A DNA stretch of 64,000 bases from Gammaproteobacteria bacterium. Lineage in GTDB: Bacteria > Pseudomonadota > Gammaproteobacteria > UBA4575. Where the stretch lies: contig CBDCUI010000008.1 of the NCBI GenBank assembly GCA_965222615.1, positions 834,222-898,221 of the forward strand, given 5' to 3'. A program made the position numbers and the translations under genes. The notes beneath the pieces are model-generated. The model saw nothing but the letters and a program-made list of their open reading frames with translations, was not told the origin of the DNA and did no database searches. Shown here piece by piece: positions 3,327-25,124 of the stretch; the first letter of the stretch is position 1; each line of letters begins with the position of its first letter.

Positions 3327-3331
3327 TTGTT

Positions 3332-4041
3332 TTGGGAATTTATAACATGACTCAATACAAAATAGCGCCATCAATACTTTCTGCAGACTTCGCACGTTTA
3401 GGTGAAGAAGTTGAGACTGTGATGCAAGCAGGGGCAGACATGATTCATGTTGATGTGATGGACAATCATTACGTTCCAAATCTAACTTTTGGTTCTCAAG
3501 TTTGTGAAGCTTTAAGAAATTATGGAATTGAGAAAGAAATAGATGTGCATCTGATGGTAAAGCCAGTTGACGAAATGATTCCTAAATTTGCCAAAGCTGG
3601 TGCAAATTACATCAGTTTTCATCCTGAGGCATCAGAGCATGTTGACCGTACGATTCAATTGATTAAAGACTGTGGTTGTAAAGTCGGTGTTGCACTTAAT
3701 CCTGCTACTCCTTTGAGTTGGCTCGAACAAGTTTTGAATCAAATTGATATGGTGTTGTTAATGTCAGTCAATCCTGGCTTTGGCGGTCAAAAATTTATCC
3801 CATATATTTTCGGCAAGATAAAAAAGCTCGAGAACTAATCGATCGTACTGGTAGAGATATTCTTTTAGAAGTCGACGGTGGAATTAAGATCAGCAATATT
3901 AGAAATGTTGCAGATGCAGGCGCAGATACTTTTGTAGCAGGTTCCGCAATATTTGGTTGTAGAGATTATGAGGCTGCAATAGCAGCGATGCGCAGTGAAC
4001 TAACGGTAACACAAACTCGCGATGCTACTAAAGCAGCATAG
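3332..4041 (+). pseudogene. rpe: ribulose-phosphate 3-epimerase, reading frame broken by a -1 shift in the A6 run at 3820-3825 (N-part 3332-3838, C-part continues in frame +2 to TAG 4039-4041)
   Basis: N-terminal part ...[23 protein letters not shown] stops at 3838. Frame +2 reads [46 protein letters not shown]..., the conserved Rpe C-terminus. Inserting one A restores ...[14 protein letters not shown]... Confidence 0.85.
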
Positions 4042-4060
4042 TAACTAACAGGAGAATTAA

Positions 4061-6106: not shown

Positions 6107-6119
6107 TAGGTGAATACCA

Positions 6120-7184: not shown

Positions 7185-7262
7185 GAAGTGTCTAATGATG
7201 TAATTTCAAATGATAAAAAATAGTAGAAATGATTCTACAAAAAATATATTTCGAGGTGCTAT

Positions 7263-8192: not shown

Positions 8193-8278
8193 AGGTAAAT
8201 TTTTTAATCAAATACTTAAAAATGATCAGGAAATTTTTAATTTAGATTTCTATCACATAGGAAAGTGAGGTTATAGGT

Positions 8279-8749
8279 ATGATACATATTCTCCCAGTAA
8301 CAAATTGGTGGCCTTTTAAATTACACCAAGAAGAGAATCGATACAGCTCGGCTCTTGGAAAAACTAATGTAGTAGAGCTAGATCAAAATATTGAGTTAGA
8401 TGGAAATAATGCGCTTGCTATTTTAGCCTATGGCGAGATTATAGAACACATGGACATAGGTTGCGAATTAATTGATTCACTACTTGTAGAAGAGATGACT
8501 AATATTTTAAATAATAATCGAGGACAAAATGAGCTTTATGATCCTCAAAACATTTCTAAAAGTTTGTTGCCAACTGCAAAGGAAGTATTACATAAATATT
8601 ATTCAAAATATAAAAAATACTCAAATAATTGTGAAGATATTTGCCGCTGTGTGCATAATGAATGTGATATTGAATTTCTTAAATTCATTACGCATATATA
8701 TGCTCGAGCATTTATCAAACAGTTTTATTGGCAGGAGTGTTGTGCTTGA
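8279..8749 (+). CDS. hypothetical protein, AT-rich ORFan with Cys-rich C-terminus (NNCEDICRCVHNECD...QECCA), inserted between prk and cbbY
   Basis: 156-aa ORF in a roughly 33% GC segment. A 470-nt open frame in such AT-rich DNA is unlikely by chance. No recognisable family. Confidence 0.45.
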   Translation: MIHILPVTNWWPFKLHQEENRYSSALGKTNVVELDQNIELDGNNALAILAYGEIIEHMDIGCELIDSLLVEEMTNILNNNRGQNELYDPQNISKSLLPTAKEVLHKYYSKYKKYSNNCEDICRCVHNECDIEFLKFITHIYARAFIKQFYWQECCA

Positions 8750-8821
8750 TAACAAGGAGAAGCTTAATTGGTAAGATATCATCGATTTATATTAATTTAC
8801 TATATTGGTTACTAATCAAAC

Positions 8822-9577
8822 TTGAAACTTACCACTTTGCTATTTGATATAGATGGCACACTTGCAGAAACTGAAGAAAATCATCGCAAATCGTTTAATT
8901 TAGCTTTTCAGCAGGCGGGGTTAAACTGGTCTTGGTCAAGATCGTTATACTGTAATTTACTGTCTATTGCTGGCGGTAAGGAACGTATTCGTTATTTCGT
9001 AGACCAATACTCTCCAGACTTTGTAAAGCCGAAAAATTTAACTGGCTTCATAGCTGATCTACATGCAAACAAAACAAAAATATATTATCAGTTGTTGAAA
9101 CAAGGCTGTGTGCCATTACGACCAGGTGTAAGGCGCATAATACAGGAGGCACGCCAAACTGGGATTCGCTTAGGTATTGTTACGACAACTACACCAAAAA
9201 ATGTTTCAATTTTGCTACAAAGAAGTCTTACACCAGATTCACCGAGCTGGTTTGATGTAATCGCAGCAGGTAGTGTAGTTCCTAGAAAAAAACCTGCACC
9301 TGATATTTATCTTTATGCATTACAGCAACTAAATGAAAATCCCCAATCATGTCTGGCAATCGAAGATTCGGAAAATGGATTACATTCAGCAGTGCAAGCA
9401 GGATTGAAAACTATTATAACGGTAAGCGAGTACTCACAAGGGCAAAATTTTAGTGAAGCGGTTTTAACTGTCGATCATTTGGGTGAACCAGATCTACCAT
9501 CTACTGCGATCAAAGGGGCTTTGAATGAAAATTCTTATGTCGATCTTACCTTGTTAATGAATATCTGTAAGAATTGA
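8822..9577 (+). CDS. cbbY: HAD-family hydrolase, CbbY-like (xylulose-1,5-bisphosphate phosphatase family); TTG start
   Basis: 251 aa; HAD motif I LLFDIDGTLAETE, motif IV IEDSENGLHSAVQAGL; position at the 3' end of the cbb operon. Confidence 0.8.
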   Translation: MKLTTLLFDIDGTLAETEENHRKSFNLAFQQAGLNWSWSRSLYCNLLSIAGGKERIRYFVDQYSPDFVKPKNLTGFIADLHANKTKIYYQLLKQGCVPLRPGVRRIIQEARQTGIRLGIVTTTTPKNVSILLQRSLTPDSPSWFDVIAAGSVVPRKKPAPDIYLYALQQLNENPQSCLAIEDSENGLHSAVQAGLKTIITVSEYSQGQNFSEAVLTVDHLGEPDLPSTAIKGALNENSYVDLTLLMNICKN

Positions 9578-9909: not shown

Positions 9910-12900
9910 ATGGCGATTTTTGATGCTTTTAAACAGTGGACAGAAAAAGTTTTAGATAAAGTCCAATCGAACGATGAAAAAATTTTAGAAGAGTTATATC
10001 AGGACCAGATAAATTCTGATTTTCCAAGAGAAGAGCTGTTTAAGCAGAATATTTTTATGGGTGACACAACCCGTGCCGAGCGCGTTGGTGAAGAGGTGGC
10101 TTCTGAAGAAACTTCTGCTAGTGTAGATGAAGGTATTAAACCAAGAGAAATTCAGTCTAATACGTTTAATAATTCTGAAGCAGGCCATGACAATGTTCCT
10201 GAATTTTCAGAATTAAATCGTACTACAAACTCAAATAATAATTTTGAGTCAAGCAATAACATACAATCTTTTTCTAACAACGGCTTCGTGTCACCTAGTG
10301 ACTTAAATAGTGATACTCAACTAAATCCAGTTTCTGCACTTCTTAATGAATACGATTCGCCATTTACCACTGATGGTATAAGTCAGGGTATTGAACCTAA
10401 TCCTGGTGGTAATGCTCCATCCAACTCTAATATAAGTCCTGTCGTTGATGCCAATGTATCAGACAATATCGTTAGCGAAAGCGCCCCAGTGGGTGCAGTT
10501 ATAGGTGTTACTGCTTTCGCTTTTGATAGTGACGGCAGTGACAGTGTGAGTTACAGCTTAGCGAGTGGCAGCTTGGATAACGATGCGTTTGCGATCGATG
10601 CGGTCACGGGTGAAGTGACGGTTGCGGATGCGAGTGCGCTGGACTTTGAGAATGATGCGTTGATGCAAATCGAAGTGACGGCGACGAGTACGGATGGTTC
10701 GAGCGGTACGCAAGTGTTCAACATCGCGATCACGGATGACACGAGTGAATTTAGCATTGGTGCGGTGAGTGATGTGGATGCGAGTGCGAACAGTGTGAGT
10801 GAAAGTGCGAATGTGGGTGACGTGGTGGGGGTAACCGCGTTTGCCGAAGACTTGGATGGCAGTGACAGTGTGAGTTACAGCTTAGCGAGTGGCAGCTTGG
10901 ATAACGATGCGTTTGCGATCGATGCGGTCACGGGTGAAGTGACGGTTGCGGATGCGAGTGCGCTGGACTTTGAGAATGATGCGTTGATGCAAATCGAAGT
11001 GACGGCGACGAGTACGGATGGTTCGAGCGGTACGCAAGTGTTCAACATCGCGATCACGGATGACACGAGTGAATTTAGCATTGGTGCGGTGAGTGATGTG
11101 GATGCGAGTGCGAACAGTGTGAGTGAAAGTGCGAATGTGGGTGACGTGGTGGGGGTAACCGCGTTTGCCGAAGACTTGGATGGCAGTGACAGTGTGAGTT
11201 ACAGCTTAGCGAGTGGCAGCTTGGATAACGATGCGTTTGCGATCGATGCGGTCACGGGTGAAGTGACGGTTGCGGATGCGAGTGCGCTGGACTTTGAGAA
11301 TGATGCGTTGATGCAAATCGAAGTGACGGCGACGAGTACGGATGGTTCGAGCGGTACGCAAGTGTTCAACATCGCGATCACGGATGACACGAGTGAATTT
11401 AGCATTGGTGCGGTGAGTGATGTGGATGCGAGTGCGAACAGTGTGAGTGAAAGTGCGAATGTGGGTGACGTGGTGGGGGTAACCGCGTTTGCCGAAGACT
11501 TGGATGGCAGTGACAGTGTGAGTTACAGCTTAGCGAGTGGCAGCTTGGATAACGATGCGTTTGCGATCGATGCGGTCACGGGTGAAGTGACGGTTGCGGA
11601 TGCGAGTGCGCTGGACTTTGAGAATGATGCGTTGATGCAAATCGAAGTGACGGCGACGAGTACGGATGGTTCGAGCGGTACGCAAGTGTTCAACATCGCG
11701 ATCACGGATGACACGAGTGAATTTAGCATTGGTGCGGTGAGTGATGTGGATGCGAGTGCGAACAGTGTGAGTGAAAGTGCGAATGTGGGTGACGTGGTGG
11801 GGGTAACCGCGTTTGCCGAAGACTTGGATGGCAGTGACAGTGTGAGTTACAGCTTAGCGAGTGGCAGCTTGGATAACGATGCGTTTGCGATCGATGCGGT
11901 CACGGGTGAAGTGACGGTTGCGGATGCGAGTGCGCTGGACTTTGAGAATGATGCGTTGATGCAAATCGAAGTGACGGCGACGAGTACGGATGGTTCGAGC
12001 AGTACGCAAGTGTTCAACATCGCGATCACGGATGACACGAGTGAATTTAGCATTGGTGCGGTGAGTGATGTGGATGCGAGTGCGAACAGTGTGAGTGAAA
12101 GTGCGAATGTGGGTGACGTGGTGGGGGTAACCGCGTTTGCCGAAGACTTGGATGGCAGTGACAGTGTGAGTTACAGCTTAGCGAGTGGCAGCTTGGATAA
12201 CGATGCGTTTGCGATCGATGCGGTCACGGGTGAAGTGACGGTTGCGGATGCGAGTGCGCTGGACTTTGAGAATGATGCGTTGATGCAAATCGAAGTGACG
12301 GCGACGAGTACGGATGGTTCGAGCGGTACGCAAGTGTTCAACATCGCGATCACGGATGACACGAGTGAATTTAGCATTGGTGCGGTGAGTGATGTGGATG
12401 CGAGTGCGAACAGTGTGAGTGAAAGTGCGAATGTGGGTGACGTGGTGGGGGTAACCGCGTTTGCCGAAGACTTGGATGGCAGTGACAGTGTGAGTTACAG
12501 CTTAGCGAGTGGCAGCTTGGATAACGATGCGTTTGCGATCGATGCGGTCACGGGTGAAGTGACGGTTGCGGATGCGAGTGCGCTGGACTTTGAGAATGAT
12601 GCGTTGATGCAAATCGAAGTGACGGCGACGAGTACGGATGGTTCGAGCGGTACGCAAGTGTTCAACATCGCGATCACGGATGACACGAGTGAATTTAGCA
12701 TTGGTGCGGTGAGTGATGTGGATGCGAGTGCGAACAGTGTGAGTGAAAGTGCGAATGTGGGTGACGTGGTGGGGGTAACCGCGTTTGCCGAAGACTTGGA
12801 TGGCAGTGACAGTGTGAGTTACAGCTTAGCGAGTGGCAGCTTGGATAACGATGCGTTTGCGATCGATGCGGTCACGGGTGAAGTGACGGTTGCGGATGCG

Positions 12901-15717
12901 AGTGCGCTGGACTTTGAGAATGATGCGTTGATGCAAATCGAAGTGACGGCGACGAGTACGGATGGTTCGAGCGGTACGCAAGTGTTCAACATCGCGATCA
13001 CGGATGACACGAGTGAATTTAGCATTGGTGCGGTGAGTGATGTGGATGCGAGTGCGAACAGTGTGAGTGAAAGTGCGAATGTGGGTGACGTGGTGGGGGT
13101 AACCGCGTTTGCCGAAGACTTGGATGGCAGTGACAGTGTGAGTTACAGCTTAGCGAGTGGCAGCTTGGATAACGATGCGTTTGCGATCGATGCGGTCACG
13201 GGTGAAGTGACGGTTGCGGATGCGAGTGCGCTGGACTTTGAGAATGATGCGTTGATGCAAATCGAAGTGACGGCGACGAGTACGGATGGTTCGAGCGGTA
13301 CGCAAGTGTTCAACATCGCGATCACGGATGACACGAGTGAATTTAGCATTGGTGCGGTGAGTGATGTGGATGCGAGTGCGAACAGTGTGAGTGAAAGTGC
13401 GAATGTGGGTGACGTGGTGGGGGTAACCGCGTTTGCCGAAGACTTGGATGGCAGTGACAGTGTGAGTTACAGCTTAGCGAGTGGCAGCTTGGATAACGAT
13501 GCGTTTGCGATCGATGCGGTCACGGGTGAAGTGACGGTTGCGGATGCGAGTGCGCTGGACTTTGAGAATGATGCGTTGATGCAAATCGAAGTGACGGCGA
13601 CGAGTACGGATGGTTCGAGCGGTACGCAAGTGTTCAACATCGCGATCACGGATGACACGAGTGAATTTAGCATTGGTGCGGTGAGTGATGTGGATGCGAG
13701 TGCGAACAGTGTGAGTGAAAGTGCGAATGTGGGTGACGTGGTGGGGGTAACCGCGTTTGCCGAAGACTTGGATGGCAGTGACAGTGTGAGTTACAGCTTA
13801 GCGAGTGGCAGCTTGGATAACGATGCGTTTGCGATCGATGCGGTCACGGGTGAAGTGACGGTTGCGGATGCGAGTGCGCTGGACTTTGAGAATGATGCGT
13901 TGATGCAAATCGAAGTGACGGCGACGAGTACGGATGGTTCGAGCAGTACGCAAGTGTTCAACATCGCGATCGAAGATGTTAATGAAGGTGCAACAGTATT
14001 GACTGCCAATGTCACCGGAAATGAAGACACAGCAATACCGCTTAATATTCAAGTAACTGATGTCGAACCGGGTGCAAATGTATCGGTGACGATAACAGGT
14101 GTCCCAAATGGTGCAGTGCTATCTGCGGGTACAGATAATGGAACTGGTAGTTGGACACTTAGTCAGTCAGATTTAACGGGCTTGACATTAACTCCTGCAG
14201 GAAATAGCGACGCTGATTTTGTGTTATCTGTGCAAACGGATGTTACAGAGAATAGTGTAACACAGTCTTATACAAATACATTTAATGTAACAGTAGATGC
14301 TGTAGCGGATGCGCCGATATTAGTGGGACCTAACACGATTACTCAATATCAAAATCCTACCTATAACTTTGAAAATGGTTTAGGAAATTGGGACATACTT
14401 GGAGATATAGTGAACCCAGGTGGGTACCAAGGACAATCTCCTACAGAAGGTTCAAAGATGGCACGAATGCGAGCTCAAGGTGCTACAGATTCTCAATTAG
14501 AAAGTGAATTAGGCATATCAAGCGGTAGTTTAGATGCAATTTCAACTGGGGATGCGCAAGATGGGTCTTCAATGCAGACCGCAATTGCTGTTAAAGAAGG
14601 TGATGTAATTACTTTTGATTGGAATTTTTATAATGCAGAAAATGCTGGTGATATCGCCAGTGGATATAATGATTTTGCAATTGCAAGCATCAATGGAACT
14701 CCTCAGGTTCTTTCACAGTCGTCGGATTTTGGGAATCCGGGAGCAACTGGATGGCAAATGTTTACGTTTACAGCAATACAAGATGGTGTATTGGATCTTG
14801 GCTTTGCGGTAGTTAATACAAACGATAGTAATAAAGATTCAAGTTTGTTAGTAGACAATTTGCAAATCAATGGAAATATAATTGATACTCGTCCGGTAGA
14901 TTTAAACTTGACCATTGCATTAAGCGATGCAGATGGTTCTGAGTCGCTAGCAATTGAAGTATCTGGTGTGCCGACTGATGCAAGTCTAAGTGCAGGTACT
15001 GATTTAGGCGGTGGAATTTGGTCTATAGATCCTGCTGATGTTGATGGCTTACAGTTAATTCCTTCTGCAACTACATCAGGAACTGTTTCGCTTACGATAT
15101 CTGCGACATCAACCGAGGCTAATGGTGGTGATTCTAGTACCGTGTCACAAACTATCGATGTGGAATTTGAAACTCTCGACGGGCCCATCTTTGGAACACT
15201 AGGGACAGATAATATTACCGGTACAGCGAATGATGATGTGATCGTTGCACGCGCTGGAAATGACACAGTCTCTGGTGGGGCTGGTGATGATTTAATTATG
15301 GGCGGCGATGGTAACGACACACTTAACGGTGATGCTGGCGATGACCAACTCTATGGTGGTGCTGGTAATGATTCCTTAAACGGTGGTGCAGGGAATGATG
15401 TCATGATTGGCGGTGCCGGAAATGATGTCGCTGTAGGTGGTGCAGGTGATGATGTATATATTTTTGAAGCGCTGGGCGATAGTGACTCATTTAGTGGCGG
15501 GAATGGTGGTGGTTGGACTGATGCGATTAGTCTTGATGTAGATATCTCATCATTACCTGATCCATCGGATCCATGGACGATTACTGTAAGCGGCAGTGAG
15601 GTTAGCTATGACGTTGCACTTGGATATTTAGACCTTGGTGCGGATGCTTCTGGTTCGATTACCTTTGATGATGGTAGTGAAATCAATTTCGATGGAATCG
15701 AACAAATTAATTGGTAA
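9910..15717 (+). CDS. giant T1SS-secreted cadherin-like RTX adhesin (1936 aa from Met 9910; ORF opens at 9844)
   Basis: N-terminal region, then 11 x 108-aa cadherin-like repeats (FAIDAVTGEVTV...FNIAITDD), two Ig-like 'GSESL...NSDADF' modules, a beta-sandwich domain, GGxGxDxxx nonapeptide repeats (15180-15480), and C-terminal ...DGSEINFDGIEQINW secretion signal. Confidence 0.9.
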   Translation: MAIFDAFKQWTEKVLDKVQSNDEKILEELYQDQINSDFPREELFKQNIFMGDTTRAERVGEEVASEETSASVDEGIKPREIQSNTFNNSEAGHDNVPEFSELNRTTNSNNNFESSNNIQSFSNNGFVSPSDLNSDTQLNPVSALLNEYDSPFTTDGISQGIEPNPGGNAPSNSNISPVVDANVSDNIVSESAPVGAVIGVTAFAFDSDGSDSVSYSLASGSLDNDAFAIDAVTGEVTVADASALDFENDALMQIEVTATSTDGSSGTQVFNIAITDDTSEFSIGAVSDVDASANSVSESANVGDVVGVTAFAEDLDGSDSVSYSLASGSLDNDAFAIDAVTGEVTVADASALDFENDALMQIEVTATSTDGSSGTQVFNIAITDDTSEFSIGAVSDVDASANSVSESANVGDVVGVTAFAEDLDGSDSVSYSLASGSLDNDAFAIDAVTGEVTVADASALDFENDALMQIEVTATSTDGSSGTQVFNIAITDDTSEFSIGAVSDVDASANSVSESANVGDVVGVTAFAEDLDGSDSVSYSLASGSLDNDAFAIDAVTGEVTVADASALDFENDALMQIEVTATSTDGSSGTQVFNIAITDDTSEFSIGAVSDVDASANSVSESANVGDVVGVTAFAEDLDGSDSVSYSLASGSLDNDAFAIDAVTGEVTVADASALDFENDALMQIEVTATSTDGSSSTQVFNIAITDDTSEFSIGAVSDVDASANSVSESANVGDVVGVTAFAEDLDGSDSVSYSLASGSLDNDAFAIDAVTGEVTVADASALDFENDALMQIEVTATSTDGSSGTQVFNIAITDDTSEFSIGAVSDVDASANSVSESANVGDVVGVTAFAEDLDGSDSVSYSLASGSLDNDAFAIDAVTGEVTVADASALDFENDALMQIEVTATSTDGSSGTQVFNIAITDDTSEFSIGAVSDVDASANSVSESANVGDVVGVTAFAEDLDGSDSVSYSLASGSLDNDAFAIDAVTGEVTVADASALDFENDALMQIEVTATSTDGSSGTQVFNIAITDDTSEFSIGAVSDVDASANSVSESANVGDVVGVTAFAEDLDGSDSVSYSLASGSLDNDAFAIDAVTGEVTVADASALDFENDALMQIEVTATSTDGSSGTQVFNIAITDDTSEFSIGAVSDVDASANSVSESANVGDVVGVTAFAEDLDGSDSVSYSLASGSLDNDAFAIDAVTGEVTVADASALDFENDALMQIEVTATSTDGSSGTQVFNIAITDDTSEFSIGAVSDVDASANSVSESANVGDVVGVTAFAEDLDGSDSVSYSLASGSLDNDAFAIDAVTGEVTVADASALDFENDALMQIEVTATSTDGSSSTQVFNIAIEDVNEGATVLTANVTGNEDTAIPLNIQVTDVEPGANVSVTITGVPNGAVLSAGTDNGTGSWTLSQSDLTGLTLTPAGNSDADFVLSVQTDVTENSVTQSYTNTFNVTVDAVADAPILVGPNTITQYQNPTYNFENGLGNWDILGDIVNPGGYQGQSPTEGSKMARMRAQGATDSQLESELGISSGSLDAISTGDAQDGSSMQTAIAVKEGDVITFDWNFYNAENAGDIASGYNDFAIASINGTPQVLSQSSDFGNPGATGWQMFTFTAIQDGVLDLGFAVVNTNDSNKDSSLLVDNLQINGNIIDTRPVDLNLTIALSDADGSESLAIEVSGVPTDASLSAGTDLGGGIWSIDPADVDGLQLIPSATTSGTVSLTISATSTEANGGDSSTVSQTIDVEFETLDGPIFGTLGTDNITGTANDDVIVARAGNDTVSGGAGDDLIMGGDGNDTLNGDAGDDQLYGGAGNDSLNGGAGNDVMIGGAGNDVAVGGAGDDVYIFEALGDSDSFSGGNGGGWTDAISLDVDISSLPDPSDPWTITVSGSEVSYDVALGYLDLGADASGSITFDDGSEINFDGIEQINW
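10447..14010 (+). repeat. in-frame tandem array, 324-bp unit x 11 (first and last units diverged at outer ends); internal units identical except one G/A (SSGTQ/SSSTQ) in units 5 and 11
   Basis: Perfect periodicity of the antisense pseudo-ORFs every 324 nt (10551, 10875 ... 13791); direct reading of lines 10531-13970. Confidence 0.95.
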
Positions 15718-15747
15718 AAATATTTTCTGATTGTTTTCCCACGTTCA

Positions 15748-15788
15748 ATGTGATTGGTATCTCAAAAAGTTTGAGATACCAATCACAT
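15748..15788. terminator. perfect 19-bp palindromic stem with 3-nt loop, 30 nt downstream of the giant adhesin stop; putative intrinsic terminator / RNA stability element
   Basis: atgtgattggtatctcaaa-aag-tttgagataccaatcacat; not followed by a clean T-run. Confidence 0.45.
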
Positions 15789-15896
15789 GTATGATCATTA
15801 ATACTAATTTTATCCTTTTGCTGCATAAAGGTTTTCCCCCATATGCCGTTACCGTTTATGGGTAACTGTAAATGGACTTTTTAAAGGATTATCCCA

Positions 15897-18800
15897 ATGG
15901 CTATTAATGATAAGGACGTCAATATTAAAAATGTTGTGATGAATGAGGATTCATCGGCTTTTGATGCAAGGAAAAAGGAAATACCTGAAGCCGAAGATCA
16001 ATCTTCAAATTTTCCAAAGGAAGAATTATTTAAACAAAATATCCAAATGGGTGATACAGATCGCCTCATTGATGAAGACCTTTCTTTGCAAAGTGAGTCT
16101 AGAACTAATCAGGTTGATCAAACTGCGAAAGACTCTGGCCCTAATCTAGTTGAGCAAGGACAAGCAGAAAATAATTATGCGAATATTGCCGATAGTGATG
16201 TAGTAAATTTAAGTAATTCAGTTTCAAGTGGTGGCGATAGCAACTATAGCAATCCTTCATCTGTTATCAAACCGGCGTCTTTACAAAATAGTCAAGCATC
16301 TCAAGTAGAAAAAACTAATGAAGATCAAGCACAATCATCGAACCAAGCGGTATTTGAAAGTCCTTCGCATGGTTCGCCAGACCTTGGTTCTGGCATTAAT
16401 GCTGGGCAATCAGAGTCTGTAGATAATCAAGCAAGTGCACCTGAGTTAATAGTAAGTAATGCAACGGGTGATGAAGATAGTGCAATCGCACTGGATATCA
16501 ATGCAGCGCTTACCGATACAGACGGCTCAGAAAGCTTAGTCGTTGAAGTGCAAGATATTCCAAATGGAGCAGTACTGTCTGATGGGGTAAATAGTTTTAC
16601 AGCGACCTCGTCGGAAACCACTGCTGACATAACTGGATGGAACTTTGATTCACTTACAATAACACCTGCCGAAAATAGCGATGCAGATTTTGATCTCGCC
16701 GTACAAGCTACTTCTACAGAACATTCCAATAACGATGTTTCTACAAGTAATGCCACATTGAGTGTCAATGTTAATTCGATTAACGATGCTCCAGATTCGG
16801 TTAGTCTTGATGGTAATGCTGTGGTTGAAAATGGTTCAGGAATTGTTATTGGCACCTTATCAACAAGTGATGTTGATGCAGGGGATGTGCATAGCTATAG
16901 CGTTTCAGATTCACGATTTGAAGTGATTGATGGAAAGCTTCAACTCAAAGCAGGAATATCACTAGATTACGAAAAAGAGCAAGCTATTGAACTCGATATT
17001 ACTTCTACTGATTCACATGGTGCTTCATTTACACAAACATTTTCTATTGATGTAAAAGATGCTGTTGAACAAATCGTGGGTACTAACAATGCCGATTATT
17101 TAAAAGGTGGAATAGGTAGTGACGATATTATTGCTTTGGATGGTAACGATGTTGTTGTTGCTGGGGATGGTAATGATAGGGTTGATGGTGGTGCCGGAAA
17201 CGATCGCCTATATGGTCAAGCCGGTGACGATAACCTCATCGGTGGAGATGGAAATGATAGTTTATATGGCCAAGCTGGCGATGATCAGTTATCCGGTGGT
17301 GCTGGTAATGATGTGTTAAATGGCGGTGCGGGTGAAAACGTATTAGACGGTGGTGACGGTGCAGATCGTTTGTATGGACATCAAGGTGGCACCGATGAGA
17401 TTAAAGGAGGTGCGGGCGATGATTACATTTATATGGATGGTAATGACCGCGTCGATGGTGGTGATGGTTTTGATCGGGTGTATACATATGGTGAAGAAGA
17501 TGTATCGATAGATATGGGTGAAGCGAATGTGGAGCAAGTGATTGCTTATAGCGATGCGGATCACAATATTGATGCGAGTAGTGCGGATCAGGGTGTGTAT
17601 GCACGTGGACGTGGGGGCGATGATGAGATCAAAGGTTCGGATCATGCCGATCGTTTGTTTGGTGGGGAGGGTGAGAACGTATTAGACGGTGGTGACGGTG
17701 CAGATCGTTTGTATGGACATCAAGGTGGCACCGATGAGATTAAAGGAGGTGCGGGCGATGATTACATTTATATGGATGGTAATGACCGCGTCGATGGTGG
17801 TGATGGTTTTGATCGGGTGTATACATATGGTGAAGAAGATGTATCGATAGATATGGGTGAAGCGAATGTGGAGCAAGTGATTGCTTATAGCGATGCGGAT
17901 CACAATATTGATGCGAGTAGTGCGGATCAGGGTGTGTATGCACGTGGACGTGGGGGCGATGATGAGATCAAAGGTTCGGATCATGCCGATCGTTTGTTTG
18001 GTGGGGAGGGTGAGAACGTATTAGACGGTGGTGACGGTGCAGATCGTTTGTATGGACATCAAGGTGGCACCGATGAGATTAAAGGAGGTGCGGGCGATGA
18101 TTACATTTATATGGATGGTAATGACCGCGTCGATGGTGGTGATGGTTTTGATCGGGTGTATACATATGGTGAAGAAGATGTATCGATAGATATGGGTGAA
18201 GCGAATGTGGAGCAAGTGATTGCTTATAGCGATGCGGATCACAATATTGATGCGAGTAGTGCGGATCAGGGTGTGTATGCACGTGGACGTGGGGGCGATG
18301 ATGAGATCAAAGGTTCGGATCATGCCGATCGTTTGTTTGGTGGGGAGGGTGAGAACGTATTAGACGGTGGTGACGGTGCAGATCGTTTGTATGGACATCA
18401 AGGTGGCACCGATGAGATTAAAGGAGGTGCGGGCGATGATTACATTTATATGGATGGTAATGACCGCGTCGATGGTGGTGATGGTTTTGATCGGGTGTAT
18501 ACATATGGTGAAGAAGATGTATCGATAGATATGGGTGAAGCGAATGTGGAGCAAGTGATTGCTTATAGCGATGCGGATCACAATATTGATGCGAGTAGTG
18601 CGGATCAGGGTGTGTATGCACGTGGACGTGGGGGCGATGATGAGATCAAAGGTTCGGATCATGCCGATCGTTTGTTTGGTGGGGAGGGTGAGAACGTATT
18701 AGACGGTGGTGACGGTGCAGATCGTTTGTATGGACATCAAGGTGGCACCGATGAGATTAAAGGAGGTGCGGGCGATGATTACATTTATATGGATGGTAAT

Positions 18801-19406
18801 GACCGCGTCGATGGTGGTGATGGTTTTGATCGGGTGTATACATATGGTGAAGAAGATGTATCGATAGATATGGGTGAAGCGAATGTGGAGCAAGTGATTG
18901 CTTATAGCGATGCGGATCACAATATTGATGCGAGTAGTGCGGATCAGGGTGTGTATGCACGTGGACGTGGGGGCGATGATGAGATCAAAGGTTCGGATCA
19001 TGCCGATCGTTTGTTTGGTGGGGAGGGTGACGACCAGTTAGTCGGAGGTGGTGGTAATGATCGTCTCTATGGTCAAGATGACGATGACATTTTTGTTGTA
19101 GGGGATGGTAGTGATGTTGTGTATGGTGGTGACGGTAGTGATTTATTTATTTTGGACGCGTTGGATGGTAACGACACATTCCACGGCGGCAATGGCAATG
19201 GTTGGTCAGATATTATCGATATTAATGTTTCACCATCCGATACCGGTGATAGTGATAACCCTTGGTCCATTGAAGTAAATGGTGAGCAGGTGCAATTTGA
19301 CTTGGCTGACGGGGGAATCGATGTTGGTCCGGATGCAACCGGCGTGATTTCTTTTGCGGATGGTAGCGAAGTTGCTTTTGATGGGGTGGAGCAGATTCAG
19401 TGGTAG
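15897..19406 (+). CDS. large T1SS-secreted RTX-repeat protein (1169 aa) with cadherin-like domain and 5 identical 113-aa RTX blocks
   Basis: N-terminal motif shared with upstream giant protein; Ig-like GSESL...NSDADF module; cadherin-like domain (16790-17060); GGxGxD repeats; C-terminal ...DGSEVAFDGVEQIQW homologous to upstream protein. Confidence 0.9.
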   Translation: MAINDKDVNIKNVVMNEDSSAFDARKKEIPEAEDQSSNFPKEELFKQNIQMGDTDRLIDEDLSLQSESRTNQVDQTAKDSGPNLVEQGQAENNYANIADSDVVNLSNSVSSGGDSNYSNPSSVIKPASLQNSQASQVEKTNEDQAQSSNQAVFESPSHGSPDLGSGINAGQSESVDNQASAPELIVSNATGDEDSAIALDINAALTDTDGSESLVVEVQDIPNGAVLSDGVNSFTATSSETTADITGWNFDSLTITPAENSDADFDLAVQATSTEHSNNDVSTSNATLSVNVNSINDAPDSVSLDGNAVVENGSGIVIGTLSTSDVDAGDVHSYSVSDSRFEVIDGKLQLKAGISLDYEKEQAIELDITSTDSHGASFTQTFSIDVKDAVEQIVGTNNADYLKGGIGSDDIIALDGNDVVVAGDGNDRVDGGAGNDRLYGQAGDDNLIGGDGNDSLYGQAGDDQLSGGAGNDVLNGGAGENVLDGGDGADRLYGHQGGTDEIKGGAGDDYIYMDGNDRVDGGDGFDRVYTYGEEDVSIDMGEANVEQVIAYSDADHNIDASSADQGVYARGRGGDDEIKGSDHADRLFGGEGENVLDGGDGADRLYGHQGGTDEIKGGAGDDYIYMDGNDRVDGGDGFDRVYTYGEEDVSIDMGEANVEQVIAYSDADHNIDASSADQGVYARGRGGDDEIKGSDHADRLFGGEGENVLDGGDGADRLYGHQGGTDEIKGGAGDDYIYMDGNDRVDGGDGFDRVYTYGEEDVSIDMGEANVEQVIAYSDADHNIDASSADQGVYARGRGGDDEIKGSDHADRLFGGEGENVLDGGDGADRLYGHQGGTDEIKGGAGDDYIYMDGNDRVDGGDGFDRVYTYGEEDVSIDMGEANVEQVIAYSDADHNIDASSADQGVYARGRGGDDEIKGSDHADRLFGGEGENVLDGGDGADRLYGHQGGTDEIKGGAGDDYIYMDGNDRVDGGDGFDRVYTYGEEDVSIDMGEANVEQVIAYSDADHNIDASSADQGVYARGRGGDDEIKGSDHADRLFGGEGDDQLVGGGGNDRLYGQDDDDIFVVGDGSDVVYGGDGSDLFILDALDGNDTFHGGNGNGWSDIIDINVSPSDTGDSDNPWSIEVNGEQVQFDLADGGIDVGPDATGVISFADGSEVAFDGVEQIQW
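17331..19025 (+). repeat. in-frame tandem array, 339-bp unit x 5, copies identical at nucleotide level (first codon 3 gaa vs gag)
   Basis: Unit GENVLDGGDGADRLYGHQGGTDEIKGG...GSDHADRLFGGE repeats at 17331, 17670, 18009, 18348, 18687; antisense pseudo-ORFs recur every 339 nt. Confidence 0.95.
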
Positions 19407-19622: not shown

Positions 19623-19817
19623 TAAGTATTTACTAGTCAATGCGTTTTGTCATCAATATTGATGATCTTATCCCATGCTACTAAGCAAGGTTCTGATTTC
19701 TAAAGGGTTTAGCTCTTAAGCCGATACAAGCAATACAGGCTTTGGTATTCCCGCCAGTAGTTTACTGGTGGGGGTGATATTTATTGGTTAATCAAGAACG
19801 AGGAAGGACTTTATTAA

Positions 19818-21578
19818 ATGGATTCGTCGACCTTGACGGAAGAGTTATCCACAGATAATGCTTCTGAATTTAAACATCGACTACCTACAGCATGGAAGCG
19901 ATGGGATGTTTTGTTGGCGTCGTTGATTATCAACTTGGCTACACTGACATTGCCCATTGTTATTTTACAAGTCTATGACCGTATATTGCCTAATCAAGCA
20001 GTTGATACATTCACTCTTTTAATATTCGGTTTGTTAATTGCTGCAATATTAGATGGTGTACTTAGAGTAACACGCTCAGCAATCCTTACCTGGAAAGGTG
20101 TTCAATACGAACATACGGAAAGTATTCACGCAATAGAAAGAGTTGTTCATTCTGATTTAGTTAAGTTTGAAAGTAATTCAATTGGATCGTACTTGGACAA
20201 AATGGAAAGTCTCAAGAAGGTTAGAGAGTTTTATTCTGGACAATCTATATTGATGTTAGTGGATTTGCCCTTTGTTTTGGTTTTTTTAAGTTTAATTTTT
20301 GTGTTTGCAGGTGAAATGGTACTAATACCAATAACAATGATCATGATTTTTGTTGTAATTTCGTATTTCACAGGTAGGCAATTAAAAAAAGCGTTAGAGG
20401 AAAGATCTTCTGCAGATCAACGCAGACAAAATTTTCTTATCGAAACATTGCAAGGCATTCACACCGTAAAGGCAATGGCAATGGAAGCGCTAATGCTGCG
20501 CAGATACGAAAGATTGCAATCTCAATCTGCAGCAAGTGTTTATCAAGTGAGCCGCATAAACAGCATTGTTTCAGGATTGGGTGCTACATTTTCACAAATA
20601 GTTATGATCAGTTTTGTTGGCATAGGAAGTATATATGTGATCTCAGGGGATTTAACTATAGGCGCACTAGCGGCTGGCACGATGTTATCGGGCAGGGTGT
20701 TACAACCTGCTTTAAAGGCAATGGGACTTTGGACACAGTTACAAGCTGTATATATTGCGGGTGAAAAAGTAAACGACGTTCTGTCTTTACCACTTGAGGC
20801 ATTGAAAGAGCATCCTCGACCCATCATTTTAAAGGGTGGAGTTGAAATAAGAGATGTACATTTTCAACATGAAGGCAGCAAAACTGAATTATTATCTGGA
20901 GTGTCATTAAATATTAAACCCGGTGAGGCAATAGGAATCATTGGAGCAAATGGAGTAGGTAAAACTACGTTGATAAATTTAATTATGGGATTTGTTAATC
21001 CTACCAAAGGAGAAGTTTTATTAGACGGTCAAAATATTAAAACACTGGACGGTTCTTCAGTTCGTGCACAAATTGCCTTGATGCCGCAACAAGGTACTAT
21101 TTATGACGGTACGATTTTGGATAATTTAACCTTATTTCGTGAAGGTGAAGCAATTGACCAAGCGATTAAACTTACTAATTTACTTGGTTTAACCAAGGCA
21201 ATTAATAAACTTCCTAATGGCTTAGATACTCGAATTGGTGGTGCAAATGCAGATGCTATGCCTGCAGGAATCCGCCAACAAATCATTCTTGCGCGTTCAA
21301 TGATTGGTGATCCTGAATTTGGTGAACCAAAAATTATCTTATTCGATGATGCAAACTCTTGTTTAGATTTTGAAAATGAAGCTCGATTACATTCGTTTTT
21401 AGAGAACAATCGAAAAAATCGCACTTTACTAATTATTTCACATCGTCCATCTCTGCTAGCTATATGCGACCGACACTTTGAATTAAAACAGGGGAAATTA
21501 CACAGTAGAAGTATAAAGTTTAGTGAAAGTAATATGCTTGAGTCTTCATCAGGTTTCGATAACGTTGTGAATCAGTAA
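19818..21578 (+). CDS. T1SS ABC transporter subunit (TMD+NBD, no N-terminal C39/CLD domain); degenerate signature (MPAGIRQQ) and Walker B (ILFDDA)
   Basis: 586 aa; six-helix exporter TMD, Walker A GANGVGKTT, Q-loop MPQQ, H-loop ISHR. Confidence 0.85.
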   Translation: MDSSTLTEELSTDNASEFKHRLPTAWKRWDVLLASLIINLATLTLPIVILQVYDRILPNQAVDTFTLLIFGLLIAAILDGVLRVTRSAILTWKGVQYEHTESIHAIERVVHSDLVKFESNSIGSYLDKMESLKKVREFYSGQSILMLVDLPFVLVFLSLIFVFAGEMVLIPITMIMIFVVISYFTGRQLKKALEERSSADQRRQNFLIETLQGIHTVKAMAMEALMLRRYERLQSQSAASVYQVSRINSIVSGLGATFSQIVMISFVGIGSIYVISGDLTIGALAAGTMLSGRVLQPALKAMGLWTQLQAVYIAGEKVNDVLSLPLEALKEHPRPIILKGGVEIRDVHFQHEGSKTELLSGVSLNIKPGEAIGIIGANGVGKTTLINLIMGFVNPTKGEVLLDGQNIKTLDGSSVRAQIALMPQQGTIYDGTILDNLTLFREGEAIDQAIKLTNLLGLTKAINKLPNGLDTRIGGANADAMPAGIRQQIILARSMIGDPEFGEPKIILFDDANSCLDFENEARLHSFLENNRKNRTLLIISHRPSLLAICDRHFELKQGKLHSRSIKFSESNMLESSSGFDNVVNQ

Positions 21579-21582
21579 TGCA

Positions 21583-23772
21583 ATGAGCGTAACTGCAGAA
21601 GATTTCAGTAATTTTGAAAAGGAAGAACAACTTCCTCTATCTGAGCGTTTAGCGAATGCTATACGCTATGGTAAGTATCAAGAGGTTGATAAAATTTCAC
21701 CTTATGCCGCCTGTATCATACCTATACTTACTGAGTTGGGTTGGCGTTCTTATAAACGTGAACTCATCGAGGCGATACCTCACTTCGCAGATCATTTAGA
21801 TCTCGTCGATCTACGCAATATGCTCGTTACTTTAGGTTATGAAAGTGACGAAAAGAAAACTACTGTAAAAAAAATTAGTCCAGCACTTACTCCATGTTTG
21901 TTTGTATCTAAGAAGGGGGATGTTTATGTAATCACAGAAAAAACCAAAGATTCGATTACCTACTATGATGCAACAAAAAGAAATTATTGTTCGAATGATA
22001 TCTCATATGAAAAAGGAACGGCTTACTTTTTCACCGATATGCACCCAACACATGCAATGACAGGCCAAGAGCAAAGCGGTGAACAATGGTTTTCACAAGT
22101 CTTAAAGCGATTTAAAAAGTTAGTCAAACATTTATTTGCGATGACATTTATTTTAAATATTATCGCATTACTGGTGCCACTGTTTATTATGGTGGTATAC
22201 GACAATGTAATTGGAGCAGGCACAACAAAAAGTGTCCCGTACTTAATGGTTGGTATATGCATTGCATTAGCATGTGAGCTTATTTTTAGATTAGTTCGCT
22301 CAAAAACACTTGGTCTGCTTGCAGGGCGCTTAGATTATATAATTGGTGTAGAAACATTTAAGAAAATTCTATCTCTGCCTCCATTACTTACCGAACGCTC
22401 AACAGTTATCTCACAACTTTCTAGGCTAAGGCAGTTTGAATCCATACGAGAATTTTTTACTGGCCCAAGCGCTGCTTTATTTTTGGAATTACCCTTTGTA
22501 TTTTTGTTTGTCATTTTGCTAGCAATTTTAGGAGGGAGTATTGCACTGGTGCCTATTGCAATGATAATCATCTATGTAATTTTTGGGTTTTTTTGGTTTC
22601 CAAATATTAATAAAAAACTTATCCATGCAGGACATGCACGATCTGCACGTCAGCGTATGTTAATGGAGACTTTTTCAGGTCTGCGTGAGCTTAAATCTTT
22701 AGGGGCTGAAGGTGCTTGGCTGGAGCTATGCAGAGAAGCTTCAGGTGAAGCCATGACGCGAACCTATAAAACCACCACCAGTCATGCAGTTATTAACAGT
22801 ATGGCGCAATCATTGATGACCCTTGCAGGGATATCTGTTCTGGCGATTGGAACATTAAAGGTAATGCACGGGGACATGACTATTGGCGCTTTAATAGCTG
22901 TAATGGCTTTAATCTGGCGTGTGTTATCGCCATTGCAGGGTGTGTGTCTTGCGATGTTACAAATCGATCAAATTACGCAAAGTATCAAACAGCTGAATCA
23001 ACTCATGCGCGTACCTTCAGAAACCAATAGTTATAAAGCTGGGTTATTGATGCCAAAGATATCAGGAAAAATCACATTAGACCGAGTGACATTTCGCTAT
23101 GGTCCAAACGAAAATCCTGCTTTAGTCGGTGCATCATTTACGATTAATCCAGGCGAATTTGTAGCTATTGTAGGCGGTAATGGCTCTGGAAAATCTACGG
23201 TATTAAAGCTAATTGCTGGAATGTATCGCGCACAGGCAGGTTTGCTTGCTATCGATGATACCGATGTGAGGCAATTAAATGCGATTGATTTGCGCCGAGT
23301 AATTGCTTACATGCCGCAAAAACCAAGCCTGTTTTATGGAACGATTACGCAAAATATTCGAATGAATCAGCCCTTAGCGACGGATGACCAAATAGAGCTG
23401 GCAGCACGTCAAGCTGGAATTTTCGCATCTATCCAGCGATTACCTGACGGGTTTGACACCCTTGTTGGTGACCACACAACTTCACGCTTACCGTCCGGTT
23501 TGGTACACGGAATTTGTTTGGCACGTGCCTATGTTCGCCAAGCGCCAATTTTTTTGCTAGATGAACCAGGAACCTCGCTCGATACAGTTACAGATAAAAA
23601 TTTAATCGAGCACTTAAATAAGACACGTGGAAACCAGACAGTACTAATGGTTAGCCATCGTCCATCACATATAAAACTTGCAGATCGTGCAATTGTAATG
23701 GTTAACGGTATGGTTGCACATGTTGGGACACCTGATGAAGCAGTTAAATACTTAACGGAGATGCAAAGATGA
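21583..23772 (+). CDS. T1SS ABC transporter subunit with N-terminal C39-like domain (HlyB-like); degenerate signature (LPSGLVHG), consensus Walker A/B
   Basis: 729 aa; about 160-aa N-terminal domain, TMD, Walker A GGNGSGKST, Walker B IFLLDEPGTSLD, H-loop VSHR. Confidence 0.85.
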   Translation: MSVTAEDFSNFEKEEQLPLSERLANAIRYGKYQEVDKISPYAACIIPILTELGWRSYKRELIEAIPHFADHLDLVDLRNMLVTLGYESDEKKTTVKKISPALTPCLFVSKKGDVYVITEKTKDSITYYDATKRNYCSNDISYEKGTAYFFTDMHPTHAMTGQEQSGEQWFSQVLKRFKKLVKHLFAMTFILNIIALLVPLFIMVVYDNVIGAGTTKSVPYLMVGICIALACELIFRLVRSKTLGLLAGRLDYIIGVETFKKILSLPPLLTERSTVISQLSRLRQFESIREFFTGPSAALFLELPFVFLFVILLAILGGSIALVPIAMIIIYVIFGFFWFPNINKKLIHAGHARSARQRMLMETFSGLRELKSLGAEGAWLELCREASGEAMTRTYKTTTSHAVINSMAQSLMTLAGISVLAIGTLKVMHGDMTIGALIAVMALIWRVLSPLQGVCLAMLQIDQITQSIKQLNQLMRVPSETNSYKAGLLMPKISGKITLDRVTFRYGPNENPALVGASFTINPGEFVAIVGGNGSGKSTVLKLIAGMYRAQAGLLAIDDTDVRQLNAIDLRRVIAYMPQKPSLFYGTITQNIRMNQPLATDDQIELAARQAGIFASIQRLPDGFDTLVGDHTTSRLPSGLVHGICLARAYVRQAPIFLLDEPGTSLDTVTDKNLIEHLNKTRGNQTVLMVSHRPSHIKLADRAIVMVNGMVAHVGTPDEAVKYLTEMQR

Positions 23773-25124
23773 CGCAGGAAAGCATGTCTTTATCTAATAC
23801 AGTTAAAACAGAAGTACCACGTGCAAGAGCTCGGTTTATTGCTCAATCGATTCAATTAGAAGAATCAGATGCGCCAGGTGTTGTAAGTATTGGAATATTA
23901 ACGACTGCTATTCTCTGCCTAGCTGCAGTATTTTGGGCTTACTTCACTCCTGTTAATGAAGTCGCGATCACTCAAGGCGAGGTTGTTCCCAGTGGATATA
24001 ATCATGTAGTACAACATTTAGAAGGTGGGATAGTAAAAGAGATACGAGTAAGTGATGGAGAATTCGTTAATGAGGGGGATGTGCTAATTCGCATAGCACC
24101 ATCAGCAACCAAATCAGACTTGCAGCAAATACAGGCCCGCTATGCGATTTTAAAACTGCAATTAACACGTCTTAATGCAATATTAAGTGGTGATCAACCT
24201 GATTTTGAAAACTATCAAAATACTTATCCTGAATTAGTAGCAAGTGAAAAAGAAATTTACTATGCACAGCTTAAAAGTCATCAATCACAAATTAAAGTAG
24301 CTAAAACTAAAATTAGTCAGCGTTATGAAGAACTGGAACGAGAAAAAAGTAAAGCTAGTTATTTGAAGAGGGAGTTGAATGTGCTACAACAACAAGCTGC
24401 AATGCGGGAGGGTTTAGTAAGCCGTGGTTTGGTATCGAGAGCAGAATATCTTGATCGAAAGGTGGAATTAGCTGAAACCGAGACTCAATATCAACAAACA
24501 CTATCCAATATTAATGTAGCCAGTGAGGCAAGAAGGGAAGCGCATCAGTCATTAATTGATTTGGAAAATCGTTTACAAGAATCAATACAATTGGAAATAG
24601 GCAAAGTGTCTGGTGAATTGGCGGAGTTGGATGAGAATTTAATCAAGTATGAGGATCGAGTCAATCGTTTAGAATTAACCGCCCCAGTTTCCGGTGTAGT
24701 AAAAGGTTTAGTTGTAAATACTATTCAAAGTGTAATTAAACCGGGTGAAACAATTATGGAGATTGTGCCTGCTGGCGATGAATTAATTGTCGAAACTAAA
24801 ATCAATACATCAGATATTGGCCATGTCTATACCGGTCAAGAGGCAGAAATTAAAGTCAATAGCTATGATCCCCAACGTTTTGGAACGGTATCAGGAGAAG
24901 TAAAACAAATTAGTGCATCTACATTCTTAGATGAGGAGAGACAGCCCTATTATCGTGCAAAGATAGCTTTACAAAAACATTATATTGGCAACAATCCAAA
25001 TCGATACCAAGTTATACCTGGAATGACAGTTCAGGCAGATATTAAAACAGGTGAAAAATCCGTTCTGGATTACTTATTGAAACCTATTTACCGCGGGTTT
25101 CAAAATGCGTTTCAAGAAAGATAA
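23769..25124 (+). CDS. HlyD-family T1SS periplasmic adaptor (membrane fusion protein)
   Basis: 451 aa; N-terminal TM, long coiled-coil, C-terminal beta-barrel; start overlaps the ABC stop (ATGA). Confidence 0.88.
   Translation: MTQESMSLSNTVKTEVPRARARFIAQSIQLEESDAPGVVSIGILTTAILCLAAVFWAYFTPVNEVAITQGEVVPSGYNHVVQHLEGGIVKEIRVSDGEFVNEGDVLIRIAPSATKSDLQQIQARYAILKLQLTRLNAILSGDQPDFENYQNTYPELVASEKEIYYAQLKSHQSQIKVAKTKISQRYEELEREKSKASYLKRELNVLQQQAAMREGLVSRGLVSRAEYLDRKVELAETETQYQQTLSNINVASEARREAHQSLIDLENRLQESIQLEIGKVSGELAELDENLIKYEDRVNRLELTAPVSGVVKGLVVNTIQSVIKPGETIMEIVPAGDELIVETKINTSDIGHVYTGQEAEIKVNSYDPQRFGTVSGEVKQISASTFLDEERQPYYRAKIALQKHYIGNNPNRYQVIPGMTVQADIKTGEKSVLDYLLKPIYRGFQNAFQER

Follow-up and report, generated by a model that had tools for sequence, protein, structure and literature searches.

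A type I secretion locus with two dissimilar ABC half-transporters and a predicted asymmetric pair of ATP sites

The 64,000-nucleotide stretch of gammaproteobacterial contig CBDCUI010000008.1 analysed here (the window, numbered from its first nucleotide) contains a type I secretion system (T1SS) in which two different genes for ATP-binding cassette (ABC) half-transporters, designated ABC1 and ABC2, precede a gene for an HlyD-family periplasmic adaptor. These genes, like the two RTX genes and the hairpin described below, lie on the plus strand. ABC1 (19818-21578) encodes a 586-residue half-transporter composed of a transmembrane domain and a nucleotide-binding domain (NBD), with its first transmembrane helix about 30 residues from the start and no N-terminal domain, while ABC2 (21583-23772) encodes a 729-residue half-transporter that additionally carries a C39-like N-terminal domain (about 21583-22050). 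The 451-residue T1SS adaptor (23769-25124) matches TIGR01843, the NCBIfam model for HlyD-type T1SS adaptors, with 403.4 bits (cut-off 208.65). Four nucleotides separate the ABC1 stop codon (TAA) from the ABC2 start (ATG), and the HlyD start overlaps the ABC2 stop as ATGA; the three genes form a tightly packed operon 3' of two RTX genes. A first-pass annotation of the window had described an ABC1 of 586 residues without an N-terminal domain and an HlyD gene translationally coupled to ABC2. Both descriptions hold, the one by reading frame and alignment, the other by the ATGA overlap and the TIGR01843 match.

Both ABC proteins match the Pfam families ABC_membrane and ABC_tran, and the top NCBIfam models for both are T1SS subfamilies (LssB, then HlyB, then PrtD), all with scores below their curated cut-offs. 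For the LssB model (TIGR03375, cut-off 693.1) the scores are 437.5 bits for ABC1 and 515.5 bits for ABC2, the latter match spanning the N-terminal domain too. Of the solved structures HlyB matches ABC1 best (250 bits), and for ABC2 it ranks with the top ones (226 bits). The two window proteins are only 27% identical, as far from one another as either is from single-ABC T1SS pumps, and their split is therefore likely to be old. In public databases members of the family bear generic names ("ATP-binding cassette domain-containing protein", "peptidase domain-containing ABC transporter", "LapB").

The nucleotide-binding motifs of the two subunits depart from consensus at different places. In ABC1 the Walker A sequence (GANGVGKTT, 20943-20969) is followed by a signature that reads MPAGIRQQ (21258-21281) where HlyB has LSGGQRQR, by a Walker B sequence ILFDDA (21336-21353) that aligns to LIFDEA of HlyB and places D511 at the position of the catalytic Glu, and by an H-loop SHRP (21438-21449); the Walker A Lys, Q-loop, A-loop Phe and H-loop His are all intact. 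In ABC2 the Walker A (GGNGSGKST, 23173-23199), Walker B (FLLDEP, 23551-23568, with E661) and H-loop (SHRP, 23653-23664) conform to consensus, and the degenerate signature LPSGLVHG (23488-23511) aligns to LSGGQKQR of ABCB1. These are the motifs quoted in the first-pass annotation, and translation together with alignment to HlyB and ABCB1 confirms every one. That they might be ordinary variants of the motifs of single-ABC T1SS pumps, a result that the first-pass annotation had named as refuting its proposal, is ruled out by six control proteins, namely HlyB, RtxB and RtxE of V. vulnificus, and three ABCs from single-ABC T1SS loci (on a Beijerinckia plasmid, on a V. crassostreae plasmid, and a LapB-type Vibrio gene with LapG and LapD neighbours): LSGGQ and the Asp-Glu pair of Walker B are present in 6/6.

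The N-terminal domain of ABC2 is recognisable by fold. The Pfam model Peptidase_C39 scores 13.3 bits on the N-terminal ~155 residues, short of its threshold of 22 (E 0.074), and a sequence-profile search of the PDB with this domain detected no C39-like domain (CLD). An AlphaFold model of the domain (pLDDT 77) matches, by Foldseek, the C39-like domain of a Vibrio toxin exporter (3B79, E 8.8e-6), the HlyB CLD (3ZUA, 1.1e-4), HlyB (7SGR, 6.5e-4) and the ComA PEP (1.6e-3), with probability 1.0. As modelled, the domain is thus a papain-like C39 fold, and the C39/CLD assignment made from the sequence at first was right at the level of the fold, though the Pfam threshold was missed. Across the family H67 never varies, and C44 is conserved to at least 90%. 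By hand alignment and spacing to HlyB, Asp129 is kept and Val114 occupies the strand position of the canonical His, and because of this substitution a non-proteolytic CLD is the likelier identity. Residues 26-152 (21658-22038) hold many family-invariant positions (R28, G53, W54, E63, P66, H67, D76, R78, N79, G85, S88, P104, F150, T151 and D152), yet this segment is missed by the Pfam and PDB sequence profiles.

The arrangement of the three genes is no accident of the window. With each GTDB species represented by one genome, a scan gave 215 confirmed relatives, and 80 of them were examined together with locus L001. ABC2 lies directly 3' of ABC1 in 78/79 loci with room for it (>300 nt of contig downstream), and HlyD follows ABC2 in 67/71 with room for that gene, with typical gaps of -4 to +10 nt. 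Carriers include Sedimenticola, Candidatus Thiodiazotropha, a tubeworm symbiont, Thiotrichales, Amphritea, Methylomonas/Methylococcaceae, Halioglobus, Pontibacterium and alphaproteobacterial metagenome-assembled genomes (MAGs), and by these matches the module is distributed over many marine and soil bacteria of the gamma- and alphaproteobacteria. Cultivable carriers of the split form include Amphritea sp. HPY, Pontibacterium granulatum A-1 and Pseudohalioglobus lutimaris HF004. The order ABC1-ABC2-HlyD is also found in relatives with only 36-44% identity to ABC1, in one of which (L086) a TolC-like OEP gene lies 3' of HlyD. At E<1e-20 the database contains more than 1800 relatives of ABC1; of the 120 highest-ranking, most have a length of 540-600 residues and none has the N-terminal domain. 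The FDDA sequence of Walker B is kept in 116/116 full-length ABC1 homologues, with the Walker A Lys, Q-loop and H-loop His intact.

In some lineages the two proteins are joined. When 1.84 billion cluster representatives were searched exhaustively with HMMER and the top 150 matches inspected, ~23 proved to be ABC1::ABC2 fusions of ~1300 residues, in which ABC1 residues 30-565 align to fusion residues 30-560 (36-41% identity) and ABC2 residues 38-724, N-terminal domain included, to fusion residues 611-1296 (33-39% identity). The hosts are Azospirillum isolates, Rhodospirillales and Magnetococcales; on plasmid pAB510c of Azospirillum sp. B510 a 1363-residue fusion (WP_148219661.1) is followed by an HlyD gene, with a giant Ig-like-domain protein facing it. 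Fusion in the order of the split genes is classic evidence that two products belong to one complex, and these partners therefore likely act in one complex. Both ABC1 and ABC2 show pN of 0.12-0.14 at pS of ~0.75 (synonymous sites saturated), the same as HlyD, values that indicate equally strong purifying selection on the two ABC genes. ABC1 is therefore unlikely to be a decaying copy.

The distribution of conserved and decayed motifs over the family indicates which of the two ATP sites is degenerate. ABC proteins bind each ATP at an interface to which one NBD contributes its Walker A, Walker B and H-loop and its partner the signature. For all representatives the NBDs were placed on one hidden Markov model and divided into ABC1-like fused N-halves (n=23), ABC1-like single proteins (n=107) and ABC2-like fused C-halves (n=23). 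A canonical Walker A is present in 10/23, 57/107 and 22/23 of these classes, respectively, the Walker B catalytic Glu in 16/23, 68/107 and 19/23, and the H-loop His in 8/23, 46/107 and 18/23. The signature runs the other way at Gly4 (22/23, 95/107 and 10/23), and Gln7 is present in 22/23, 102/107 and 19/23. Signatures of the ABC1-like type follow the consensus L-P-x-G-[VIL]-R-Q-R (abbreviated LPxGxRQ+), with Gly4 and Gln7 at about 90-95% across the superfamily, and as a rule both types of subunit have Pro at position 2. Within the close family the mean entropy of the signature is 1.32 bits for ABC2 versus 0.80 bits for ABC1; R486 of ABC1 is at least 90% conserved, and in ABC2, whose signature there follows LP[PS]G[FL]x[RH]G, the catalytic Glu and the His are invariant. 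By these counts the decay is complementary, ABC1 losing catalytic residues on the P-loop side and ABC2 drifting in its signature. Given the geometry of ABC dimers, the decayed elements would therefore share one composite site and the conserved elements the other, and the LPxG signature of ABC1 is presumably the working variant that the family conserves. The first-pass annotation had noted that both signatures are non-canonical, which is so, and had reasoned that each composite site of a heterodimer would contain one of them; the signatures prove not to be equivalent, that of the ABC1 type being conserved, and only one site looks degenerate.

Many ABC1-like relatives, fused and single (among them P0256, P0257, P0266, P0274 and P0316), have Arg in place of the Walker A Lys (GxxGxGRST), and the H-loop His is replaced by Gln, Asp or Asn in many ABC1-like relatives of both kinds. 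The degenerate site has thus decayed much further in other lineages than in the window.

Paired sites of this kind are known from other exporters. TM287/288, BmrCD and TmrAB are heterodimers with one degenerate and one catalytic site, and in TmrAB an Asp replaces the catalytic Glu in one subunit (TmrB D500 versus TmrA E523; PMC8277102). The window locus resembles these exporters and TAP1/2 in having two different half-transporter genes side by side, in the Asp for the Walker B Glu of one subunit with a non-canonical signature facing it from the partner, in the resulting combination of one non-hydrolytic and one catalytic site (described for those proteins in PMC8277102 and read here from the motif pattern), and in the existence of fused versions, as in eukaryotic relatives. 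Unlike them, ABC1-ABC2 belongs to a tripartite T1SS with HlyD, and its putative cargo consists of RTX proteins of ~1200-1900 residues, where exporters of the TM287/288 type handle small molecules or peptides. It differs further from the TmrAB type in that one subunit bears a C39-like domain, in that the signature at the presumed active site is itself non-canonical (LPxGxRQ+), and in that ABC1 of the window keeps its H-loop His.

Taken together, strict synteny, natural fusions, equal purifying selection and complementary motif decay make it quite probable that ABC1 and ABC2 form an obligate heterodimer with one degenerate ATP site in a T1SS, and they support the first-pass annotation in proposing such a dimer with asymmetric sites. 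The inner-membrane part of the secretion system would then be an ABC1-ABC2 heterodimer engine, in place of the usual homodimer, within an HlyD assembly. One composite site (Site 1) would be built from ABC1 Walker A, Walker B (Asp511) and H-loop together with LPSGLVHG of ABC2. This degenerate site would bind ATP, as suggested by the intact ABC1 Walker A Lys, Q-loop, A-loop Phe and His, but hydrolyse it poorly or not at all, and may serve as a structural or regulatory ATP clamp. The other (Site 2) would combine ABC2 Walker A, Glu661 and His692 with MPAGIRQQ of ABC1 and would be the single catalytic site, operating with a Pro-containing LPxGxRQ+ signature in place of LSGGQ. Since only ABC2 has the C39-like domain, each dimer would offer one substrate-docking domain and not two. 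By analogy with the HlyB CLD this domain may hold unfolded RTX cargo, which would be recognised via a conserved C-terminal beta-roll-cap domain ending IEW/IQW, and HlyD would bridge to a TolC-type channel encoded elsewhere.

Cryo-EM of HlyB/D has three ABC dimers in an HlyD hexamer, and PDB entry 7SGR, with six HlyB chains, is consistent with that arrangement. If the same stoichiometry holds for the present system, an assembly would contain three CLDs instead of six, a speculative extension by analogy.

Several observations weigh against this assignment of the two sites and subunits. In canonical ABC proteins the signature Ser and the Gln of LSGGQ contact ATP; the Site 2 signature has Pro for the Ser and is without that Gln, and Site 2 may itself be slow. 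ABC1 of the window has lost only the Walker B Glu and retains Walker A, Q-loop and His, and residual hydrolysis at Site 1 is possible. Two substrates and two ABC genes, as far as the window alone is concerned, are compatible with one pump per cargo as well. Finally, no TolC-family gene was found among the scanned open reading frames (ORFs) of the 64-kb window; the TolC partner may be encoded elsewhere in the genome, as it is for hlyCABD.

If the first of these points is taken at full weight, the heterodimer would be real but compromised at both ATP sites, the Ser and Gln of LSGGQ being missing from both signatures and Pro standing at position 2 in both types, and it would turn over very slowly, with transport driven mainly by the binding of ATP, or would hydrolyse ATP only once activated by cargo or HlyD. 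We think this unlikely. The ABC1-type signature is conserved at Gly4, Gln7 and, within the close family, R486; it faces an ABC2 Walker A, Glu and His that are fully conserved, as would be expected of a working site; and the entropy of the ABC2 signature is clearly above that of ABC1. It is more improbable still that the locus encodes two homodimeric pumps that share one HlyD, each serving one of the upstream RTX proteins. The window does contain exactly two cargo genes and two ABC genes, and systems of the MARTX type show that one T1SS operon can hold two ABC genes, but an ABC1 homodimer would have the catalytic Glu in neither site, ABC1 and ABC2 are kept 1:1 regardless of the number of adjacent cargo genes, the two occur as single-polypeptide fusions, and motifs that decay in so complementary a fashion are intelligible only if the two subunits face one another in a heterodimer.

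There is very little to recommend the view that ABC2 homodimers do the work beside an ABC1 that is a decaying or non-transporting paralogue (a pseudo-ATPase). The absence of the catalytic Glu and of the N-terminal domain from ABC1 would suit it. The ABC1 frame is nevertheless intact in ~80 species with pN/pS equal to that of ABC2 and HlyD, the FDDA sequence, Walker A Lys and H-loop His are invariant in the 116 full-length homologues, ABC1 is retained as the N-half of fused transporters, and in a homodimer of ABC2 the catalytic residues would meet the more degenerate of the two signatures, that of ABC2 itself. Decay of ABC1 as a pseudogene, another circumstance that the first-pass annotation had named as refuting its proposal, is ruled out by the pN/pS values and by conservation in those ~80 species. 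Least credible of all is an orthologue of the four-component Vibrio MARTX system (RtxB/RtxD/RtxE). MARTX loci likewise pair two ABC genes and one HlyD gene with large RTX proteins, and both ABCs are reported as required (PMC3034196). In V. vulnificus, however, RtxB and RtxE both carry LSGGQRQR, LDEA, AHRL and N-terminal domains, and they are 43% identical to one another but only 25-28% to ABC1 and ABC2. Their genes stand in the order B-D-E. The divergent rtxHCA operon of MARTX loci has no counterpart here, homologues of rtxC and rtxH being absent and an acyltransferase gene not having been seen in the window. The two window substrates (one cadherin/RTX, one RTX-only, on the same strand as the exporter) have no Pfam or NCBIfam MARTX toxin match. 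Comparison with rtxBDE of V. vulnificus pC4602-2 thus rules out MARTX orthology at the sequence level.

The MARTX system remains an analogue, with two ABC genes and one adaptor for a very large RTX protein, but its gene order and its two HlyB-like ABCs, with N-domains and canonical motifs, set it apart, and by sequence comparison the two-ABC arrangement arose independently in the two systems. It had been put forward as the sole comparable architecture; the analogy stands, but MARTX is not a relative, and the TmrAB-type exporters and NHLP/microcin export provide other precedents. According to the model descriptions (TIGR03796/03797/03794), NHLP/microcin export likewise combines a peptidase-domain ABC, an ABC without active peptidase and an HlyD-family protein. 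The window proteins score far below the cut-offs of these models (ABC1 243 versus 709, ABC2 264 versus 853, HlyD 50 versus 156), and the NHLP cargo consists of small leader-bearing peptides and not RTX proteins.

Among conventional T1SS, the E. coli HlyB/HlyD/TolC system (PDB 7SGR, 8DCK) shares the N-terminal C39-like domain and the HlyD adaptor, and it has RTX cargo with a C-terminal signal and a TolC encoded elsewhere, as is proposed for the window system. It differs in that HlyB is a homodimer with canonical LSGGQRQR and Asp-Glu and a CLD on every protomer, whereas ABC1-ABC2 would pair two dissimilar subunits with one CLD and one Glu-less site per pair. LssB/LapB-type systems (TIGR03375) provide the best NCBIfam model for both ABCs and have cargo of the kind proposed here, large, repeat-rich, adhesin-like RTX proteins, but ABC1 and ABC2 fall below the cut-off, and the LapB-type control is a single ABC gene with LSGGQ and Asp-Glu. 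No LapG or LapD was found in the 64-kb window.

The two RTX genes lie directly upstream of the exporter, as the first-pass annotation had it. Substrate 1 (9910-15717) is an RTX/cadherin-repeat protein of ~1935 residues with 11 Cadherin and 5 HemolysinCabind stretches. Its mechanical ORF begins at a GTG (9844), but homologues in L008 and L011 (MAVFD.FKQW) fit the ATG at 9910 (MAIFDAFKQW), which is probably the true start. Substrate 2 (15897-19406) is an RTX protein of 1169 residues with 15 HemolysinCabind stretches, and the HemolysinCabind E-values of the two are 3e-28 and 3e-66. Substrate 1 contains a 324-bp tandem repeat in 10.6 copies (10534-13971) and substrate 2 a 339-bp repeat in 5 copies (17330-19030). 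In both the copies are 99% identical and the G+C content is 43-54%, versus 34-41% in the flanking genes, which points to recent expansion or ongoing homogenisation of adhesin-like repeats. Five antisense ORFs of 100 residues (17343-19001) are by-products of the 339-bp repeat.

Both substrates end in a similar domain, a putative C-terminal secretion domain in substrate 1 (15490-15714, ending EQINW) and a beta-roll plus cap domain in substrate 2 (19179-19403, ending EQIQW). This extreme C-terminal domain of ~75 residues, or 85-100 if the adjoining RTX repeats are counted, recurs in RTX proteins that adjoin the module at over 25 loci (e.g. L004, L016, L018, L039 and L080), encoded 5' on the same strand or divergently. 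Its pattern is GGxGxGWxD...PWxIxVxG..V.YD...L.L..D..G.I.F.DGS...FDG.E.IEW/IQW. Neither Pfam nor NCBIfam recognises it, the T1SS target domain TIGR03661 included, and a search of a large protein database returned 13 short fragments with no informative names. In a high-confidence model (pLDDT 93.8) the substrate 2 domain forms a beta-roll with a cap at its end; its best fold matches are weak (E 4e-3 at best) and fall on the C-terminal regions of classical T1SS cargo, namely Pseudomonas and Serratia lipases, AlgE R-modules, alkaline proteases and CyaA block V. Because the same C-domain adjoins the module in so many loci, the proposal that the two upstream RTX proteins are its cognate cargo is supported.

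Many of the cargo proteins also share an N-terminal box. It reads REELFKQNIFMGD in substrate 1 (10027-10065) and KEELFKQNIQMGD in substrate 2 (16017-16055), or [RK]EELFKQNI[FQ]MGD at residues ~40-52 of both. A related box, EEL/EEH-x-x-QNI-x-x-G-[DSV], occurs 35-55 residues from the N-terminus in cargo proteins that adjoin this transporter in distant genomes (L008, L009, L011, L013, L016, L042, L055, L068 and L080). Its spacing does not fit a canonical double-glycine leader; it may serve as a second element in recognition, mark a site of processing or act to retain the protein.

We consider it about an even chance that these features together define a large, as yet unnamed class of T1SS, split in gammaproteobacteria and fused in several alphaproteobacteria, which would be distinguished by an ATP-clamp site, an LPxG catalytic site, a single CLD, a dedicated cargo family and an N-terminal EELxxQNIxxG box that may be a second recognition element. 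T1SS with two ABC genes have a precedent in MARTX, and heterodimeric exporters in which one site is degenerate are likewise known. In the searchable literature, which leaves most subscription journals outside its coverage, MARTX was the only two-ABC T1SS precedent found, and the combination of an asymmetric heterodimer or fusion T1SS with a single CLD, an LPxG signature and a dedicated cargo C-domain was not found there, and the exporters of Synechococcus SwmA/SwmB yielded nothing of use; a prior description in print is possible.

Work on the T1SS mechanism rests on homodimeric pumps of the HlyB/PrtD type, in which the two ATP sites and the two CLDs are indistinguishable. A natural heterodimer would separate genetically ATP binding from hydrolysis, and the CLD-bearing from the CLD-less subunit, opening to single-subunit mutations the questions of how many ATPs are hydrolysed per transport step, whether one CLD suffices and how the ABCs are placed in the HlyD ring. 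If the assignment of Site 2 is true, an ABC catalytic site can function without the signature Ser. Chemosynthetic symbionts (Thiodiazotropha, Sedimenticola and those of tubeworms), methanotrophs and Azospirillum commonly carry the system, which in them probably serves to export adhesin-like proteins that bear on attachment to hosts or surfaces. Owing to their generic annotation such systems may be mistaken for T1SS with one pump and a second copy of its ABC gene.

Substrate 2 is set apart from ABC1 by a spacer of 411 nt with a G+C-rich, terminator-like hairpin (19746-19776, 14-bp stem), and this hairpin may attenuate read-through from the cargo genes into the transporter genes. The T1SS island as a whole is flanked by a Calvin-cycle cluster (450-9577) and a signalling/motility block (25160-64000). 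The former comprises the large and small subunits of RuBisCO, transketolase, fructose-bisphosphate (FBP) aldolase, phosphoribulokinase and a HAD phosphatase; the latter comprises a PAS/GAF histidine kinase with response regulators, MotAB, PilZ, two GGDEF proteins and the flagellar genes for flagellin, FliD, FlgK, FliF and FliI. By these Calvin-cycle and flagellar genes the host is a motile chemoautotrophic gammaproteobacterium; its nearest relatives in the database, with ~80% protein identity, are MAGs of uncultured Thiotrichales and Gammaproteobacteria.

There are also hints that this class of T1SS is under c-di-GMP or partner-switch control. In L086, whose ABC1 is 36% identical to that of the window, a partner-switching module (4848-7997) lies directly 5' of ABC1-ABC2-HlyD and consists of a PilZ-REC-PAS-SpoIIE phosphatase, a STAS protein and an anti-sigma-type kinase, the OEP gene of that locus being at 14906-16264. 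A SpoIIE phosphatase is likewise found near the Azospirillum B510 locus (L083, 25605-25650).

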